DNA of 64,000 nucleotides, from the sequence record LC788706.1. One strand, 5' to 3'. Position 1 is the stretch's first letter, and each line of letters opens with the position of its first letter. The DNA comes from Escherichia coli phage KS_S14. Positions 23,040 to 34,385 of this stretch are shown piece after piece. The notes beneath the pieces were generated by a model that was not told the origin of the DNA, did no database searches, and was given only the letters and a program-made list of their open reading frames with translations. A program made the translations under genes and the position numbers.

Positions 23040-23230
23040 AAGAATTTAATTTTTGTTTTCTCCTCGAATTTATGTATATATTATACTAGATTTCGAGAGA
23101 ATTTAGCAACTAAAATTTTTATTTTTCTGCTTCGGACTTTCTTATCAATCCGAAACTTTCTCTCTCAAATTTATGTATATATTATACATCATTTATGAGC
23201 TGTTGCCAAATGCAATTTTAGCTAATTGAA
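23040..23230 (-). promoter_or_regulatory. two tandem promoter copies on minus strand
   Basis: Repeated block GAATTTATGTATATATTATA at ~23066-23085 and ~23168-23187 (plus-strand view), each with -10 TATAAT on minus strand and upstream TTGCTA / TTGGCA. Confidence 0.5.
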
Positions 23231-28048: not shown

Positions 28049-28939
28049 TTATACCAAATCTTTAAGCGATTCAGCAACTAAAATTTCAATACGTTTTGCT
28101 AACATATCAATTTCATCTTTGTTTAAATCACCTGGATCTTTGCCTTCAGGTAGGAGAAAGTTAGCAACTACAGGTGTTAAACGCGTTTTTGTACGAATTA
28201 GCTTAGCCAATGCTTGTGCAGCTTTATTACCAGAAGCATCATTATCTAGTAAGATAACAACAACTTTTACACCAGCAATAATATAAGGACTGAACTTATC
28301 TGCAATGTTATCCGAAGTAAACTGATGTGTACCAAAGCAGCAAGAAGCATAGTCTATACCATTATCCTCTAGGTTCAGCATATCAAAGATACCTTCAACT
28401 AGAATAAGAACTGGAGTATTATATCGTACAGGGAAAATCGGTGGTGAAACTTGTTTTGGTTTTACTAAGTATTTAGGAGGGGCAGAACTGTTTATAGAAC
28501 GACCCAAAAATAGGATATTGCGTCCAACAGCATCTGTGATTGGGAATACAATTCTGCCTTCCCAGTCTGCTTGGTGTTGGAAAGCAAAATATTTCTTCAA
28601 GGTCTTAGAACTTATACCTCGGAAATCACCTTCGAAAAGGTAAGCAGATTCAGGAATTGCAAGATTCGTAGATCCATTCCTAATCTCTGAAATCTTTTTA
28701 CGTACCTGCGATAGTCTTGGAGACTGTCGGTACTGAGTCTCATTAAAATAATGGTAAATGCTCGGTATACCTTTACCGAAGCCACAACTCAAGCAGTGCA
28801 TAATACCTGTTTCAGGGTCAATACGCAAACTTGGGTGTTTATCGTCATGATCTGGATTGAGACAACAGATGAGGATGTCCCCACCTGTGTCTTTATATTC
28901 AATGCCTTTCAGATCAAGTAGTTCTGTTATTCTACTCAT
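28049..28939 (-). CDS. DNA primase (zinc-binding + Toprim)
   Basis: 296 aa; Cys/His cluster CLNPDHDDKHPS...HCLSCGFGKG and Toprim-like VLILVEGIFDMLNLEDNG. Confidence 0.75.
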   Translation of the reverse strand: MSRITELLDLKGIEYKDTGGDILICCLNPDHDDKHPSLRIDPETGIMHCLSCGFGKGIPSIYHYFNETQYRQSPRLSQVRKKISEIRNGSTNLAIPESAYLFEGDFRGISSKTLKKYFAFQHQADWEGRIVFPITDAVGRNILFLGRSINSSAPPKYLVKPKQVSPPIFPVRYNTPVLILVEGIFDMLNLEDNGIDYASCCFGTHQFTSDNIADKFSPYIIAGVKVVVILLDNDASGNKAAQALAKLIRTKTRLTPVVANFLLPEGKDPGDLNKDEIDMLAKRIEILVAESLKDLV

Positions 28940-30408
28940 ATATCGCTGGCCTGTTCACCTGTTGAATTTTCAGCTTTGTCTTTCTTAGCACGTTTAGATT
29001 GAGCCGGCTTATCCTTCTCAATAGGGATAACGAACTCAGCTTCCATTTGAGATATATCTTCCATTGCTAGGTTGGTAGTGTTATCCATCCGCAGGGTTTC
29101 CCAGTTCATTTTAGGCATAAACTTCACGCTATCAGAAGAACGAGTCTTAACGAAGTCAAACATAATAGCACCTTGACCATTATCAGCTTTTGCAGCATTA
29201 AGATTAGCAGCCATGTCTGCAGAATCAAGAATCCCCTTTGACATACGTGTTCTACCATCTTGATCGATCTGGTAAGGAGCTACACCAGCCACGTTATGTT
29301 TCTGGCAGATGGATTTGAAAGACGAGCTAACAACCATCTGTTCTTTCCAGTCATACATATCAATGGTTTTAGAGTCTGGAAGTCTGGTTTGGTTAATATA
29401 GTCCAGTAAAGCTACTGTAACTTTATCCCCATATCTAGCAACTAATTTATTTAATTCTACATCAACTGTTGTAATAGACAGCTCAGGGTCATAAACAATA
29501 ATCATAGGAGTATGTAGCTCATACCCTTCTATTAGCTTACTCTCCATATCGTAGAAATCACTCATCTTAGCCATTGTGTACTGTTTAACGAAGTTGTCGA
29601 AAAGCTCTTCACCACCATTAAACATTCTAGCTCTAGTTCTGGCTAATCTCAACAGAGCTGCACCTTCTAGAGTATTATTACGCATTGCTAGTGCTGATAC
29701 ACCAGCTAACATGGCTAGATTACGTCTAAATACTTCATGTTCTTTCATTTCAATTGAGAAGTATGGAGCAATATCTCCATTCAAATATTGCTGAACCTGT
29801 ATGTTTGAACAGATAATGGATTTACCAGTACCACGCCAACCACCAAGCAGTAACGTTTCTGTGCGAGCTAAACCAATTTGAGCGTCGAACTCATTACAAA
29901 TACCAAGAGCGATTAAGTTCAGTTTGGTATCTTCTTCTCTCTGGAAAATACGCATGTTATCTGCGTTGAATACTTTTCCAGTATTCGTTACTTTCTCTTC
30001 TAATTTTAAGTGAAGGGAGGCAACTCGGTTGAGAATTTCTCCCTGATCCAGCATTGTTAAATCTTGAAGCACGTCTGTTTCTAGAAGCTTCAGGAATAAA
30101 TCCTGTGTATATTCAGCCTCTAGGACTTCAAGTGCCTGTTCCATGCTAACTTCTGGAATTTGAGTGTTAGCTAAAACGACTAGAGCTTGAGAAAGGCGGG
30201 CGTTCCTATTAGCCTCAAGCATCAGTGCGTCAATGGACGGCATTGTGTTATATTTTTTATAATAATTCTGGACGGCTTGGTAAATTGAGGAGAAAGCGTC
30301 ATTAAAATGATCTTTATGCAGTTTTGAGAATGTTTCCAATGCTATTTGCTTCTGTTCGGAAGCTAGAAGCATCTTCAACACTACAGCTTGCACGTTAAAC
30401 AAGGTCAT
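28936..30408 (-). CDS. replicative DNA helicase (DnaB-like)
   Basis: Walker A GGWRGTGKS; start taken at MTLFNV with RBS aaggag (ORF track gives longer 30459 start). Confidence 0.75.
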   Translation of the reverse strand: MTLFNVQAVVLKMLLASEQKQIALETFSKLHKDHFNDAFSSIYQAVQNYYKKYNTMPSIDALMLEANRNARLSQALVVLANTQIPEVSMEQALEVLEAEYTQDLFLKLLETDVLQDLTMLDQGEILNRVASLHLKLEEKVTNTGKVFNADNMRIFQREEDTKLNLIALGICNEFDAQIGLARTETLLLGGWRGTGKSIICSNIQVQQYLNGDIAPYFSIEMKEHEVFRRNLAMLAGVSALAMRNNTLEGAALLRLARTRARMFNGGEELFDNFVKQYTMAKMSDFYDMESKLIEGYELHTPMIIVYDPELSITTVDVELNKLVARYGDKVTVALLDYINQTRLPDSKTIDMYDWKEQMVVSSSFKSICQKHNVAGVAPYQIDQDGRTRMSKGILDSADMAANLNAAKADNGQGAIMFDFVKTRSSDSVKFMPKMNWETLRMDNTTNLAMEDISQMEAEFVIPIEKDKPAQSKRAKKDKAENSTGEQASDI

Positions 30409-30490
30409 TCTCCTTTGCACGCTTTCGTGCCTTCTAAATGCAAAAAGGGGAAGGAGCATAGCCCCCTCCCCTTAGGTTTAATTTACCAGA

Positions 30491-31258
30491 TTATTCAGCA
30501 GCCGCAGCTTTTGCATCCAGTTTAGCACGCTTAGCGGCACCATCATAGTCCTTAGCAACCAGACCACGACGAGACAACATAGATTTAACACCACGCTCAG
30601 ACTTACCAGTTTTCTCAGCGATCTCAGCAACGGTCATGTTAACCAGATCCAGACCTTCTAGCAGATCTTCACGAGTTTTAGCACTTGAAGTTTCCTGTAC
30701 CGGCATAGCAGCGATACGACCTTCACGAAGCAGGCTCAGAGCTTTACCACGGATCTGCTTGATATTACGACCGAAGTGAGCAGCGATAGCTTCAATAGTA
30801 GCTCCAGCAACAACCTGATTAACAAAATCGGTTTCTTCATCAGGAGTGAAGGAACGAACAGCAGCAGCTTTTTCAGTTGGTTTAACAGAGGCGGTCATTT
30901 CCAGACTCAGGATCTTACCCTGTACCTGCTTAGCACCAAATTGACCACCAACTACAGCAGCAGCGATTTCAGCATAAGTATACTGACCAGCATGAGCGTT
31001 CAGGAAATCAACCAGTTCAGCTTCCTGCTCAGGAGTCCATGGGGATTTCTGTACTTCGTTAGCTTTCTGTACTTCAAAACCTTCTTTACGCAGTTTAGAG
31101 CCAACAGAGCGAGCAGTAACATCTTTGCCAGTTTCAGCAGCCAGTTCAGCAGCAATAGCAGCTACTTGTTCTTGAGAGATTACAGAAACACCCAGAGCGG
31201 TGGCTTTTGCTTTCAGAGACTCGGTTACACCTTCTACGTTCCAGTTCAGTTTAGACAT
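30491..31258 (-). CDS. putative DNA-binding protein (D5 position)
   Basis: 255-aa Ala/Lys-rich ORF with repeated helix-rich segments; synteny only. Confidence 0.45.
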   Translation of the reverse strand: MSKLNWNVEGVTESLKAKATALGVSVISQEQVAAIAAELAAETGKDVTARSVGSKLRKEGFEVQKANEVQKSPWTPEQEAELVDFLNAHAGQYTYAEIAAAVVGGQFGAKQVQGKILSLEMTASVKPTEKAAAVRSFTPDEETDFVNQVVAGATIEAIAAHFGRNIKQIRGKALSLLREGRIAAMPVQETSSAKTREDLLEGLDLVNMTVAEIAEKTGKSERGVKSMLSRRGLVAKDYDGAAKRAKLDAKAAAAE

Positions 31259-32024
31259 TATTATTTTTCTCCAATAGTTCTTTAATCGACAGGATTTCTA
31301 TCCCATTCGTTTCGGCTTTCTTATAAGATGAGGAAGAACGCTTCGATTCATCCTCACAGATTAGGTATTTGACGTCTTTGGTAACGGATTTCTTAACCGT
31401 GTATCCTAGACCTTCTAAATAGTTTGTTGCATCCGTTCGGTTTGCAAAGTCTTGCAAAGATCCGGTAATACATACCGCGATTCCATTTGGCTGGGCAACT
31501 AAATCATCAGTAACGACGGTTTTAGCTTTAGCACCAGTTGAGAATTTCCACGGTAATTCGATAACATCCTTGCCTTGTGGGGAATTTAGCCAGGCTTTAT
31601 AGTTTTCTCCAGCCTTGCCGTCAGCCTTCACATCGTGAAAGCCAGTGCAATTTTGGGATAATTTCTTTGCTGCAACCTCTCCAATTAGAGGGATTCCTAA
31701 AGAACCGAGAACTGAACCAAAGTCAATGTCTCCGCGAACTTTAGTATTTAATTCGCTAATTAACTTAGCGGCAACCTTGCTACCCACGGCTCTAACCAAA
31801 TCTTCTTCGGTTAGGTAAAATAGTTCTGAAATCTTCGTCAGCTCCAGCTTCTCAATAGTTTTCGGGCCAAAGCCCTTTAACTTCATTTTTGTACAGAAGT
31901 TCTCAATTAACTTACTTGATTGCGCTGGACAGTTGGACTTATTCCGACAGAATAATTGTCCGTTGACAAGATCTAGCTTAGAACCACAAGAGGGACATTG
32001 TGTTGGAATTTCGATTTTCATCAA
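31251..32024 (-). CDS. NAD-dependent DNA ligase, C-terminal part (Zn-finger, HhH, BRCT-like)
   Basis: 257 aa; CPSCGSKL...C..C zinc-finger-like start, GFGPKT HhH-like motif. Confidence 0.75.
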   Translation of the reverse strand: MMKIEIPTQCPSCGSKLDLVNGQLFCRNKSNCPAQSSKLIENFCTKMKLKGFGPKTIEKLELTKISELFYLTEEDLVRAVGSKVAAKLISELNTKVRGDIDFGSVLGSLGIPLIGEVAAKKLSQNCTGFHDVKADGKAGENYKAWLNSPQGKDVIELPWKFSTGAKAKTVVTDDLVAQPNGIAVCITGSLQDFANRTDATNYLEGLGYTVKKSVTKDVKYLICEDESKRSSSSYKKAETNGIEILSIKELLEKNNNV

Positions 32025-32044
32025 ATTTCTTCCTTATCAATTTA

Positions 32045-32090
32045 TATAAATATTATAGCAAGTATTTAAGCATTTAGCAACTACAATTTT
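32045..32090 (-). promoter_or_regulatory. T5-type promoter (minus strand) upstream of ligase C-terminal gene
   Basis: attata 32052-57, tagcaa 32075-80, 17-bp spacer. Confidence 0.55.
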
Positions 32091-32139
32091 AACTAACTTT
32101 GCTTACCCTCGCCATAACTTTCTATCCCTCAACTGAATG

Positions 32140-32185
32140 ATAATAGTATATACCTAAGCGGCGAAAATGTCAATAACCACTTTAT
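32140..32185 (-). promoter_or_regulatory. sigma70 consensus-like promoter (TTGACA type) on minus strand in ligase spacer
   Basis: Minus strand reads TTGACATTTTCGCCGCTTAGGTATATACT (TTGACA, 17 bp, TATACT). Confidence 0.4.
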
Positions 32186-32223
32186 AATTCCGATATGGTA
32201 GATGGGTAGCAAAGGGTTATGTA

Positions 32224-33195
32224 TTAATCATATACTCGCTCTACTATGCACGGGATTACACCACCAGCACGAATCACTCGAATCTGGCAACCGATCTCTA
32301 GATCAAGAGAGTTAATATAATCAACGTTATTAAGAGTCGCTTTAACAATTGTAGCATCATCAATAATTACCGGTTCGAAATAACCAACTGGAGTTACTTT
32401 ACCAGAGGCCCCTACCTGCCACTCAACTTTAGTAAGAGTAGTAATCTCACCTTCTTCATCCTCTTTAATAGCGAATGCTCCACGAGGGAATTTATTAGTC
32501 CAGCCTTCTCGGAAGAATTTGTTGTTGTCATTAATACGAACAACTTTACCATCCGTTGGAATCCACTTAAAGAAGGAACGCACATTAACAACTGTTAAGA
32601 AATCTTCATTCTCTAGCCAAAGCATATCTTTTAAATACGTTTCTGTAATACCTACAGATTCAGCAGAACACTGGATACCATATGCAACGAAGATTAAACC
32701 ACCTTCCCCTATACGTTGTACGAAATCATCGCTATCTTTGAGGTTAATAGCACCAGAGGCAAAGTTACGTTTATTTTCTACTTCTTTTGTAATTAGAACT
32801 TCACCAGTGATTTGAGTAGGTACTTTTTGGGAAATCTTTTGAGGGATGTTCAGCAATCTTACGTTGCTTGTGACATCATTCCCTAGAATACCATTACCAC
32901 GAGTTAGTGCTTGAACAAATTCGCCATTAATATATAACAGAGAAATCGCACAACCATCTAACTTATCAGTTTCTACCTGACCTAATGGGTTAAACGGAGG
33001 TTTATCTCCACGATTATAATAAACTTTCTGTAAAGAATACATACGATACAGATGTGGAATATCGCCCTTAGGCCCGATCTCTTCTTCTAACGGAAATCTT
33101 TTAATCAGACGATCATATTCTTCGTCAGAGATTAAAGACATTCCCTGGTAATATGCTTCTTGGCAACGTTTAATAAAGTCTTTTACATTAGTCAT
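32224..33195 (-). CDS. NAD-dependent DNA ligase, N-terminal part (adenylation + OB domains)
   Basis: 323 aa; N-terminal Ia-like region and KLDG adenylation motif. Confidence 0.8.
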   Translation of the reverse strand: MTNVKDFIKRCQEAYYQGMSLISDEEYDRLIKRFPLEEEIGPKGDIPHLYRMYSLQKVYYNRGDKPPFNPLGQVETDKLDGCAISLLYINGEFVQALTRGNGILGNDVTSNVRLLNIPQKISQKVPTQITGEVLITKEVENKRNFASGAINLKDSDDFVQRIGEGGLIFVAYGIQCSAESVGITETYLKDMLWLENEDFLTVVNVRSFFKWIPTDGKVVRINDNNKFFREGWTNKFPRGAFAIKEDEEGEITTLTKVEWQVGASGKVTPVGYFEPVIIDDATIVKATLNNVDYINSLDLEIGCQIRVIRAGGVIPCIVERVYD

Positions 33196-33219
33196 TTATT
33201 TGTATCTCTCATTAATTTA

Positions 33220-33262
33220 TATAAATATTATATAACAAAACTGAGTTGAAAGCAAATACATT
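33220..33262 (-). promoter_or_regulatory. T5-type promoter (minus strand) upstream of ligase N-terminal gene
   Basis: attata 33227-32, aagcaa 33250-55, 17-bp spacer. Confidence 0.55.
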
Positions 33263-33282
33263 TATAAAGAAAAAGCCAAGAA

Positions 33283-33591
33283 CTAGGCATTCTTGGCTTT
33301 GAGTTCTTCAGCTCGTTTCTGTACTTCATGTAAAACCTCAGATTCGCTAAGAATCTGTGTAAACGCATAGAAAAGCTGCGATGTTGTTTCTAGGGTGTAA
33401 GGAAAAGAGAAGCCAGATTTCGTTGGAAACCATTCATCATTAATATCAAGAAGCCAGTAACGAATACCCATGTATAGATTCCCACGAAATTCAGATACTG
33501 TTAATCTTACTTGTTCTCCCTCCTTCTCCCAGAGTATGATGGACTGGTCATCAACGTGTCCTTCATAGTTTTGATTTACCTGTTCGCTCAT
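33283..33591 (-). CDS. hypothetical protein
   Basis: 102-aa ORF. Confidence 0.4.
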   Translation of the reverse strand: MSEQVNQNYEGHVDDQSIILWEKEGEQVRLTVSEFRGNLYMGIRYWLLDINDEWFPTKSGFSFPYTLETTSQLFYAFTQILSESEVLHEVQKRAEELKAKNA

Positions 33592-33607
33592 TTACATATC
33601 CCAAATA

Positions 33608-33632
33608 CACAAAAAGCCCCATATAGGGGCTA
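33608..33632 (-). terminator. rho-independent terminator (minus strand)
   Basis: GCCCC-ATAT-AGGGGC; minus strand followed by TTTTTGTG. Confidence 0.6.
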
Positions 33633-33641
33633 ATTGGTTTC

Positions 33642-33938
33642 TTATCGGCCTACTGGAGAAGCACGATCTAACTCTGATTGGAGGCTAGTCACACGACGGA
33701 CTTTCTCGACAGGAATAAAACGGAAGCTATCATTAGTACGAGAGAAGACAAGGATCTCATCATCTTTCGCTTTACGAATACGTTCACGTTTAATACGCTC
33801 AGCCAGATATTTATCTTGGGCTGGATCAAATTCCATCGTACCCTGAAGGTACGTGGTTCCTTTCTGACGAAGTTTCTCGTAATGAAGATAAAACTCACCA
33901 AATTTTTCACATTGTGCGATAATTTCAGCTTTGGTCAT
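33642..33938 (-). CDS. hypothetical protein
   Basis: 98-aa ORF followed by hairpin terminator. Confidence 0.4.
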   Translation of the reverse strand: MTKAEIIAQCEKFGEFYLHYEKLRQKGTTYLQGTMEFDPAQDKYLAERIKRERIRKAKDDEILVFSRTNDSFRFIPVEKVRRVTSLQSELDRASPVGR

Positions 33939-33974
33939 AACTGTGTTCCTTTTGTTGGTGGATTTATCTAAAAA

Positions 33975-34385
33975 TTACTTAGTGATAGCTCGGATTGCTT
34001 CTGCCAGATGAGCAGCCGCTTTACCAGTCAGTTTGTCGATAATTGCATCATCCAGAAAATCTGGTGCTAAGCCAGCATCAGAGAATGCTGAACGAAGATC
34101 GGCATGAGCTTGGGCTTTGGAAGTACGAGAACCACCAGAAGCTTTTTCTCCAGTAGATGCGCTAGATTTAGAAGCAGAGCCAGCAGCTTTCTTGATATAC
34201 ACACCTGCTTTAGTTAGCTTCATACGAAAACCGTTCGGAGTTACACCATTTTCCTGGGCAATTTCGCTAACAATTTCCATGCTAACACCCGGACGTTCAT
34301 CCTCTGGGAATTGCTCCATACGAGCAACGTATTCGGAAGACATTTTTTCGAACAGTTCATCAGTCCACTGAGTTGGAGTAGTCAT
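33975..34385 (-). CDS. hypothetical protein
   Basis: 136-aa ORF with T5-type promoter upstream. Confidence 0.4.
   Translation of the reverse strand: MTTPTQWTDELFEKMSSEYVARMEQFPEDERPGVSMEIVSEIAQENGVTPNGFRMKLTKAGVYIKKAAGSASKSSASTGEKASGGSRTSKAQAHADLRSAFSDAGLAPDFLDDAIIDKLTGKAAAHLAEAIRAITK

Follow-up and report, generated by a model that had tools for sequence, protein, structure and literature searches.

Split NAD+-dependent DNA ligase genes of a T5-like Escherichia phage and the gap between them

The stretch of DNA analyzed here (the window, 64,000 nucleotides of Escherichia coli phage KS_S14, record LC788706.1) almost certainly carries the split NAD+-dependent DNA ligase of a T5-like phage, in which two adjacent genes, ligA and ligB, encode the two parts of the enzyme. 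At the DNA level, region 31100-33400 is 100% identical to that of Escherichia phage Baret (genus Tequintavirus); 80% or more of its length is covered by 430 phage records, and the Baret ligase region matched 473. The original prediction did not recognize that the feature had been annotated and published. The genes, their status as subunits A and B, and both promoters in the spacer between them are present in the T5 GenBank record, and the two-gene ligase, an ordinary feature, has been annotated since 2005. The split of the T5 ligase has been noted in the literature since the same year (PMC1684257), and ligA and ligB are given as subunits in PMC3632103. A literature search that covered T5 ligase biochemistry, PDB entries 9HU3 and 9I5I, and the P-K28 promoters returned only these two papers as mentioning the split or the two subunits, and none with assays of either the T5 or the Baret proteins. 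The present analysis adds a comparison: 87 split loci, variable gaps that bear cargo genes, an inserted gene shared by two Salmonella phages, and single-chain orthologues of the enzyme.

Genes and domains of the split ligase

The original prediction that the two halves of the ligase are separate open reading frames was borne out, as both halves were located (Table 1) and have Pfam domains above the cut-offs. LigA consists of a shortened domain Ia, a nucleotidyltransferase (adenylation) domain (Pfam DNA_ligase_aden, 84.3 bits against a cut-off of 27) and an OB fold (DNA_ligase_OB, 78.5 bits against 32.9, residues 252-321). The catalytic Lys78 lies within the motif K-L-D-G (K78-L-D80-G81). In alignments, K78, D80, G81, R99, E132, R143, D215, K244 and R309 are invariant, the motif residues from K78 to K244 in eight genera-level sequences. 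The residues from K78 to K244 align, in order, to K115, D117, G118, R136, E173, R200, D285 and K314 of E. coli LigA, which we take to be among the essential residues of that enzyme, and R309, V313 and I314 in the OB fold align to R379, V383 and I384. Domain Ia is the NMN-binding element that confers specificity for NAD+. Its motif YY..(I/L)ISDEEYD is kept in the phage protein, where Y15, Y16, Y27 and D28 are invariant and position 24 is D or N, and the motif residues align to H23, D32, Y35 and D36 of E. coli LigA. LigA is 98.5% identical to its T5 counterpart and 54% identical to chain A of 9HU3.

The ligB reading frame extends over 31251-32024 on the minus strand if the TTG start of the original prediction is used, and the ATG annotated in Baret and T5, at 32021, is one codon further in. 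LigB contains a Cys4 zinc finger, a reduced helix-hairpin-helix domain and a BRCT domain. The zinc-finger residues C9, C12, C25 and C31 are invariant in 51 sequences, and the BRCT domain scores 32.7 bits against a Pfam cut-off of 21.3; the Pfam helix-hairpin-helix models score below their cut-offs on LigB, where the domain is reduced. A LigB family profile aligns to residues 402-666 of E. coli LigA (PDB 2OWO) with E = 4e-22. The AlphaFold model of LigB, which was built from an alignment of the protein with its matches in the representative library, has a pLDDT of 91.9 and 9hu3_B as its top PDB match (E = 4e-24), and the predicted fold matches the C-terminal regions of LigA enzymes. LigB is 96% identical to T5 LigB and 55% identical to chain B of 9HU3.

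Table 1. Features of the ligase region in the window, in the direction of transcription
Feature	Coordinates	Strand	Basis
Terminator-like hairpin 3' of the upstream PC4-like gene	33272..33300	-	12-pair stem followed by a T run
Candidate ligA promoter, -35 TTGCTT, 17-nt spacer, -10 TATAAT	33227..33255	-	Read from the sequence; T5 promoter at the equivalent L004 1921-1995
ligA, ligase subunit A, 323 aa	32224..33195	-	ORF list, Pfam and alignments
Spacer from ligA stop to ligB ATG, 202 nt	32022-32223	-	ORF list
Variable proximal part of the spacer, directly 3' of the ligA stop	32174..32223	-	Not conserved in a Sugarlandvirus; SP3 insertion aligns here
Candidate distal spacer promoter, equivalent of T5 P-K 28b, TTGACA-17-TATACT	32145..32173	-	11/12 consensus matches; T5 annotation L004 3003-3077
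Candidate proximal spacer promoter, equivalent of T5 P-K 28a, TTGCTA-17-TATAAT with extended -10 TG	32052..32080	-	10/12 consensus matches; T5 annotation L004 3096-3170
ligB, ligase subunit B, 256 aa from the ATG at 32021	31251..32021	-	ORF list, Pfam, alignments and AlphaFold model
Orthologue of D5, DNA-binding protein	30491..31258	-	T5 annotation 'D5 protein'; HTH and sigma-70 region 4 matches
Strong intrinsic-terminator-like hairpin	30445..30473	-	13 base pairs in the stem, 8 of them G-C, then a T run

Together, LigA and LigB hold the domains and catalytic residues of the LigA family (EC 6.5.1.2), and NAD+-dependent nick sealing is predicted for them. The order of the domains (Ia, nucleotidyltransferase, OB, zinc finger, helix-hairpin-helix, BRCT) is that of E. 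coli LigA, as are the catalytic and zinc-binding residues, although identity is only about 25-30%. By analogy, the phage enzyme would share with E. coli LigA the NAD+-dependent adenylylation of the motif I lysine and the clamping around nicked DNA. The E. coli enzyme is one chain of 671 residues, whereas the phage enzyme has two chains of 323 and 256 residues, with the break exactly at the OB-zinc-finger linker. The phage ligase is also compact in comparison, with a short domain Ia, the loss of two nucleotidyltransferase loops and a reduced helix-hairpin-helix domain.

The closest known relatives of the genes are T5 ligA and ligB (T5.116/T5.117, AAS77162/AAS77163; Wang et al. 2005, Virology 332:45), which are orthologous, are in the same order and belong to the same syntenic series of a PC4-like gene, ligA, ligB, D5 and a gene for a DnaB-like helicase. 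The products differ from those of T5 by a few substitutions and a three-residue indel where the helix-hairpin-helix and BRCT domains are linked (LigB has 256 residues here and 259 in T5), and nothing functional differs.

Promoters and transcription units

The reading frame upstream of ligA (33283-33591) has a PC4 domain according to Pfam, and the terminator-like hairpin after it closes the transcription unit that precedes ligA. The candidate ligA promoter was missed by a consensus scan since its -35 hexamer has only three of six matches. Its -10 element and leader are identical to those of the proximal promoter of ligB: exact copies of a 19-nucleotide motif, TATAATATTTATATAAATT, precede both ligA (33232-33214) and ligB (32057-32039), and there are 13 copies of the motif in the window at up to three mismatches, compared with 0.22 expected by chance. 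The generic promoter scan returned eight sites in the region versus 9.4 expected, and thus no overall enrichment; the two spacer promoters are the two best-scoring sites, are on the coding strand and lie in the only intergenic gap. Both a T5-type promoter and a TTGACA-type promoter had been predicted in the spacer, and both sites were found where they had been placed and match P-K 28a and P-K 28b of T5, respectively. Transcription would be expected to start near 32138 from the distal promoter and near 32045 from the proximal one.

The spacer is 100% identical to that of T5 over 205 aligned positions and 95% identical to that of an Epseptimavirus. It is more conserved than the synonymous sites of the flanking genes, and the conservation is centered on the two promoters. 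In a Sugarlandvirus, whose synonymous sites are saturated, the promoter cores have hardly changed, and the core of the distal promoter is invariant across four genera. The identity to T5 and the conservation of the cores despite saturated synonymous sites indicate that the spacer is a selected regulatory region, and promoter activity is suggested by this conservation along with the annotation of the T5 record. The coding strand of the spacer contains no reading frame of 30 or more codons. A mini-ORF of eight codons downstream of the distal promoter (ATGGCGAGGGTAAGCAAAGTTAGTTAA) was considered and rejected as a gene, given that neither its start codon nor its length is conserved in a Sugarlandvirus.

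The start codon of D5 overlaps the stop codon of ligB (31251-31258, ATGTCTAA), which suggests that transcripts from the spacer promoters carry D5 along with ligB, and the hairpin downstream of D5 is likely the end of the ligB-D5 transcription unit. No terminator-like site was found in the gap between ligA and ligB, and ligA transcripts therefore probably read through into ligB. The proposal that the halves are transcribed independently consequently holds in part: each gene has promoters of its own, those of ligB being named P-K 28b and P-K 28a in the T5 record, but run-on from ligA into ligB is probable as no terminator follows ligA. In the arrangement proposed here, ligA and ligB are early genes of the replication module, with ligA driven by its own sigma-70 promoter, and the tandem P-K28b and P-K28a promoters would boost transcription of ligB and the overlapping D5 as far as the downstream hairpin.

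The gap between the genes and the origin of the split

All 87 of the related Demerecviridae-like loci that were measured have the split arrangement, with gaps of 71 to 1359 nucleotides that contain varied cargo. Stand-alone LigB proteins account for 98 clusters among the best 150 representatives. The same inserted gene is carried by two Salmonella phages, SP3 and vB_Sen_SG_WM_RUS_R2 (90% identical). In SP3 the insert is a reading frame of 218 codons that matches the Pfam GIY-YIG family (26 bits against a cut-off of 22.6) and sits at the 3' end of ligA and the proximal part of the spacer, where the flanking 3' codons of ligA are recoded. Among the gaps searched for an endonuclease gene, SP3 alone gave a GIY-YIG match, the gene in vB_Sen_SG_WM_RUS_R2 being the same one, and none is present in the Baret spacer. 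Other cargo occupies the gap in Vibrio and environmental phages, and DprA-like, radical-SAM and other genes are among the cargo found outside Tequintavirus and SP3. Matches that fall into two pieces in some relatives had been considered as further spacer insertions, and were ruled out because the insertions are upstream of ligA.

Single-chain orthologues occur in environmental phage contigs that are syntenic with T5 (P0099, 557 aa; P0108, 566 aa; P0031, 568 aa), from which it follows that the split is not required for function. These ligases have the same compact architecture as the phage enzyme and about the same length (323 + 256 = 579 residues in the phage). Their neighbors include a PC4-like gene (in L095 only), a D5 orthologue 36-43% identical to Baret D5, and genes for DnaB, primase and PolA (the last identified in L093 only). 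They differ in having a single reading frame, in which a short peptide links the OB fold to the zinc finger, and are only 35-41% identical to Baret LigB. Their occurrence in the same synteny implies that a fission event, or re-fusions, happened in the group. A neighbor-joining tree of 118 LigB regions was star-like with the fused forms scattered, and gave no order of fission and fusion events.

The spacer had been proposed to be the scar of an excised mobile element. In its broader form, this explanation holds that an initially intact ligase gene was split when a mobile element, for example a homing-endonuclease gene, inserted into the OB-zinc-finger linker, and that the spacer is what the element left behind. 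A precedent is nrdA of Aeromonas phage Aeh1, where insertion of a homing endonuclease reportedly created 'genes in pieces', as described for T4-like phages. The ligase resembles that case in that an essential replication enzyme is encoded by two adjacent genes whose products reassemble and, in SP3, a free-standing endonuclease is present at the junction. It differs in that Baret and nearly all of its relatives have no endonuclease and conserved promoters occupy the junction. The gene shared by SP3 and vB_Sen_SG_WM_RUS_R2, the recoding of neighboring ligA codons in SP3, the use of the gap as a hotspot for cargo genes in other genera and the single-chain orthologues in the same synteny all speak for such an origin, and the mobile and accessory genes in the gaps of relatives make an ancient insertion conceivable. 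Against it, the present spacer contains no remnant of a nuclease, and alignment to relatives identified it as a promoter region whose conservation exceeds that of flanking synonymous sites, so that the scar found no support. The search for the endonuclease gene gave only three phage records, representing two phages, versus 473 for the Baret ligase region; the gene leaves the promoters in place next to it, as would be expected of a recent secondary invasion; the gaps are just 71-120 nucleotides long in the most distant relatives; and the star-like tree gives no order of events. An origin of the present spacer from a mobile element is consequently improbable.

A more general possibility, offered tentatively and itself rather less than probable, is that the gap is a long-lived 'landing pad' in T5-like phages. 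The ancestor would have been a compact single-chain ligase of the kind that T5-syntenic environmental phages still have, which may have been split once or more when mobile or cargo DNA inserted into the OB-zinc-finger linker; the gap would then have been reused for promoters, the GIY-YIG gene and cargo, and the split may also allow the clamping subunit to be dosed separately from the catalytic subunit.

Two probable subunits of one ligase

The original prediction that the two products assemble as a two-subunit enzyme agrees with both the T5 record, which names the genes as subunits A and B, and the structure of an orthologue. PDB entries 9HU3 and 9I5I each contain a chain of 339 residues named 'DNA ligase (NAD(+))' and a chain of 248 residues named 'DNA ligase subunit B', both were released 2026-01-14, and 9HU3 is entitled 'PR1 phage heterodimeric DNA ligase in complex with 21-mer nicked DNA containing phage nick sequence'. 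Chain B of 9HU3 is 100% identical to the protein of Providencia phage vB_PreS_PR1 over the aligned residues (245/248). The PR1 ligase has the same two-chain layout, likewise broken in the OB-zinc-finger linker, and its chains align end to end with LigA and LigB. PR1 belongs to another genus and infects Providencia hosts, and its enzyme has a structure on nicked DNA, whereas the search gave none for those of Baret and T5. Based on the 54-55% identity to the PR1 chains, Baret LigA and LigB likely form one heterodimer. LigA would be the catalytic subunit, adenylylated at Lys78, and LigB the DNA-clamping subunit; the two would associate non-covalently around nicked DNA and then seal the nick, with probable roles in joining Okazaki fragments and in repair during phage replication.

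Two alternatives to a functional pair of subunits are effectively refuted. One is that either half is a decaying, non-functional remnant and that ligation depends on its partner alone or on the host LigA. This notion draws on LigN-deltaC, a truncated LigA that self-adenylylates without its C-terminal domains (PMC1684257), and is very improbable here, since both halves are under purifying selection and have diverged at an equal rate at the protein level across six genera (identities of 98/85/73/58/52/51/51% for LigA and 96/94/73/56/55/47/54% for LigB). At the distance of Sugarlandvirus, dN is 0.217 and 0.218 for the two halves, and dN/dS is 0.03-0.28 overall (0.03-0.14 for LigA and 0.10-0.28 for LigB). 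Every catalytic and zinc-binding residue is retained, both genes are kept in 87 of 87 loci, and both chains are together on nicked DNA in 9HU3. As judged from dN/dS, residues and retention, neither half appears to be decaying. Joining of the two reading frames into one polypeptide by RNA splicing, trans-splicing of a split intein, stop codon read-through or frameshifting, prompted only by the fact that most LigA enzymes are single-chain, as are the orthologues of 557-566 residues in related phages, is scarcely credible: no intron or other Rfam family was found in 30400-34000 at E-values up to 10 (the two matches are at chance level, one of them being a terminator hairpin), the spacer RNA folds no better than shuffled sequences (z-score -0.83), seven stop codons in frame with ligA follow within the spacer, ligB is in a different frame with upstream stops of its own, the alignments of the halves to E. 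coli LigA meet at residues 391 and 402, with only about ten linker residues missing and none in excess of that enzyme or of the fused orthologues, so that an intein would have no space, the gaps of relatives contain unrelated genes and range from 71 to 1359 nucleotides, and the PDB entry has two separate chains. The reading of the locus as two genes for two subunits thus stands after the checks for splicing, read-through and a non-functional half.

For the window itself the split ligase is of little importance, since the T5 record covers the genes and promoters and the structure of an orthologous heterodimer was released in January 2026. The comparative results are of modest value for the question of why an essential enzyme stays in two pieces. 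If the gap is a landing pad, its reuses would include strong promoters for ligB and D5 in Tequintavirus, the GIY-YIG gene in SP3, and DprA-like and radical-SAM genes elsewhere, and the dose of the DNA-clamping subunit would be set apart from that of the catalytic subunit. The single-chain orthologues in the same synteny are ready-made natural fusion controls.

The ligA-ligB locus

Over positions 31100-33400 the window matches Escherichia phage Baret (OR896834; Demerecviridae, Tequintavirus) with 100% identity; 473 phage records match this region, 430 of them with at least 80% query coverage. The two halves of an NAD-dependent DNA ligase are confirmed as separate ORFs, with Pfam matches of LigA to DNA_ligase_aden (84.3 bits) and DNA_ligase_OB (78.5 bits) and of LigB to BRCT (32.7 bits), and with the LigB family profile aligning to E. 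coli LigA residues 402-666. The TTG start at 32024 originally chosen for ligB lies one codon upstream of the annotated ATG. The stop codon of ligB and the start codon of D5 overlap (ATGTCTAA), and this arrangement suggests that translation of the two genes is coupled. The D5 orthologue has weak matches to sigma-70 region 4 and HTH.

In some close relatives, 179 or 272 bp are inserted between the PC4-like gene and ligA; this extra stretch, absent from Baret, holds a small ORF of 62 or 90 aa, so that the module varies at a second intergenic site. The Baret record also has an HNH endonuclease gene (window 28406-28939, minus strand) flanked by the genes for the primase and the DnaB-like helicase; its ends overlap its neighbours, and it is another mobile-element-type gene of the replication module.

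Features of the ligase locus in the window, in gene order, and of loci in relatives (L numbers; phage records and environmental contigs)
Feature	Position	Strand	Remark
PC4-like gene	33283-33591	minus	
Terminator-like hairpin	33272-33300	minus	between PC4-like gene and ligA
PC4-like/ligA gap	33196-33282		compared with L002 2589-2777 and L003 2597-2869
ligA	32224-33195	minus	323 aa
ligA-ligB spacer			202 nt
Promoter-like site TTGACA-17-TATACT	32173..32145	minus	sigma-70-type scan
Promoter-like site TTGCTA-17-TATAAT	32080..32052	minus	sigma-70-type scan; upstream TG
ligB	31251-32021	minus	256 aa from annotated ATG
D5 orthologue	30491-31258	minus	start overlaps ligB stop
Strong terminator-like hairpin	30445-30473	minus	beyond D5 orthologue
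GIY-YIG endonuclease gene, Salmonella phage SP3	L036 5184-5840 = MG387042 64007-64663		218 aa, free-standing
Gap cargo, Proteus phage 2			60-aa ORF (annotated there as 55 aa)
Gap cargo, Vibrio T5-like phages	L008 3469-4448; L010 3469-4361; L039 4641-5844		1-3 genes
Gap cargo, environmental viral contig	L044 564-1568		334-aa radical-SAM protein gene, fills gap
Gap cargo	L055		cysteine-dioxygenase-like protein
Gap cargo	L042		crAss001_48-family protein
Single-chain compact NAD+ ligases, environmental phage contigs	L095 8001-9674; L093 5790-7490; L094 7151-8851; L092 2151-3857		557-568 aa; T5-like synteny of the replication module

A probable two-subunit ligase

The feature is the known, textbook-annotated ligA/ligB pair of T5 with its promoters P-K28b and P-K28a, and the split has been described in print since 2005. 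Baret and T5 are 98.5% identical in LigA, 96% in LigB and 100% over 205 aligned positions of the spacer, where the T5 record annotates 'promoter P-K 28b' and 'promoter P-K 28a'; counted from the ligA stop codon, both Baret hexamer pairs fall inside these two 75-nt features. An additional unnamed promoter is annotated in T5 directly upstream of ligA.

PDB profile searches led to entries 9HU3 and 9I5I, which contain a 339-aa 'DNA ligase (NAD(+))' chain and a 248-aa 'DNA ligase subunit B' chain. The chain B residues in the PDB alignment (245/248) all agree with the sequence from Providencia phage vB_PreS_PR1 (100% identity), which is treated here as a T5-like phage because its chain B is 62% identical to subunit B of Demerecviridae Proteus phages. 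The AlphaFold model of Baret LigB (pLDDT 91.9) has 9hu3_B as its top PDB match, and the title of 9HU3 (released 2026-01-14) reads 'PR1 phage heterodimeric DNA ligase in complex with 21-mer nicked DNA containing phage nick sequence'. End to end, Baret and PR1 are 54% identical in LigA and 55% in LigB. The two-subunit enzyme is thus structurally established for an orthologue. The original description of the locus is accurate, and its main interpretation, two genes whose products would form such an enzyme, is right.

In alignments with E. coli LigA, the LigA C-terminus (…VIPCIVERVYD) reaches residue ~391 and the LigB N-terminus (MKIEIPTQCPSC…) begins at residue ~402, so that only a short linker is missing between the halves and there is no space for an intein sequence. 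Counterparts of K115, D117, G118, R136, E173, R200, D285, K314 and R379, which published mutagenesis work marks as essential in E. coli LigA, are invariant across the family, as are all four zinc-finger cysteines in 51 stand-alone LigB sequences. Values of dN/dS are 0.03 (vs T5) and 0.14 (vs Epseptimavirus) for ligA and 0.28 and 0.10, respectively, for ligB; dN at Sugarlandvirus distance is equal for both halves (0.217 and 0.218). Judged from these residues and this selection, both halves appear functional, and pseudogenisation of one half was rejected. Splicing, read-through to a single polypeptide and frameshifting were likewise looked for and rejected, since no Rfam family matched at the locus, folding of the spacer RNA gave no unusual structure, and ligA is followed by seven in-frame stops with ligB in another frame.

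Promoters in the spacer

Both promoter-like sites predicted in the spacer were found; among the sigma-70-type sites of the region these two rank highest, and both lie on the coding strand. The spacer does not differ from that of T5, whereas ligA third codon positions differ at 15%. Compared with Epseptimavirus TrudiGerster, the spacer is 95% identical and third positions 66-80%; in Klebsiella Sugarlandvirus third positions are saturated (~40% identity), but both promoter cores and the initially transcribed regions are nearly unchanged. Variation is confined to the first ~45 nt past the ligA stop codon. The spacer is thus a conserved regulatory region, and the proposal that it was left behind when a mobile element was excised does not fit such strong conservation. 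The split itself may still go back to an ancient insertion.

An exact copy of the -10/leader motif TATAATATTTATATAAATT lies upstream of both ligA and ligB, and promoters are annotated in T5 at both positions. With up to 3 mismatches the motif occurs 13 times in the window (0.22 expected), and because it recurs ligA and ligB carry members of a window-wide promoter family. Two identical copies of the T5-type motif TATAATATATACATAAATT, 101 bp apart (23067-23085 and 23168-23186, minus strand), may form another tandem early-promoter pair like that of ligA-ligB. As the scan gave no terminator-like site between ligA and ligB, ligB is probably transcribed by read-through from ligA as well as from both spacer promoters, which we infer also serve the overlapping D5 gene.

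The split and its counterparts in relatives

The ligA-ligB gap was measured in 87 of 90 loci (7 of 10 annotated phage records and all 80 IMG/VR viral contigs), many of them environmental contigs merely 40-50% identical to Baret. Every measured locus has a ligA stop codon and a separate ligB, none is fused, and the gap ranges from 71 to 1359 nt; Baret and two close relatives lay outside the measurement and show the same split in their annotation. In relatives, mobile and cargo genes clearly occupy the locus. The SP3 endonuclease gene is inserted at the ligA 3' end, its start overlapping the last, heavily recoded ligA codons, directly upstream of the promoter region, which stays intact. Phage vB_Sen_SG_WM_RUS_R2 has a 90% identical copy, and the gene, labelled hypothetical or part of the ligase, occurs in only 2 phages (3 records), compared with the 473 records matching the Baret ligase region at the DNA level. 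One of the Vibrio phage gap genes encodes a 186-187 aa DprA-like protein (phrog_768), the rest small proteins of unknown function. In the jumbo Serratia phage 2050HW, a LigA-half match (MF285618 195532-196284) lies under two annotated features, 'DNA ligase' and 'NAD-dependent DNA ligase', a hint that splits or interruptions may also affect the NAD+ ligases of other phage groups.

A full HMMER search with LigB through 1.84 billion representative proteins yielded 3641 matches (E-value ≤0.001), of which the best 150 were classified as 98 full-length stand-alone LigB-like proteins (235-267 aa), 22 fused ligases and 30 fragments or other forms. Ten of the 22 are compact (555-578 aa) with a strong LigA-half match as well, and for three of these (proteins P0099, P0108 and P0031) the source contigs were identified. 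The neighbourhoods of P0099 and P0108 show T5 synteny (ligase, D5 orthologue, DnaB, primase, PolA), with a PC4-like gene before the ligase in L095, PolA identified in L093, and D5 orthologues 43% and 36% identical, respectively, to that of Baret; P0031 adjoins a Phage_T5_A2-domain gene. Because compact fused forms sit in T5-type neighbourhoods, unsplit orthologues exist in the wider T5-like group and are natural counterparts of LigA plus LigB. A neighbour-joining tree is poorly resolved as to whether the fused forms are ancestral or re-fusions. The L095 contig also has NAMPT/NAPRTase-like and PRPP-synthetase-like genes (59-2429), suggesting that a pathway for NAD+ salvage is encoded near the NAD+-dependent ligase.

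The T5 gene pair, its spacer promoters and the heterodimer structure of an orthologue were already known; what is added here is a comparative survey of the split, the cargo in its gap and the unsplit counterparts.
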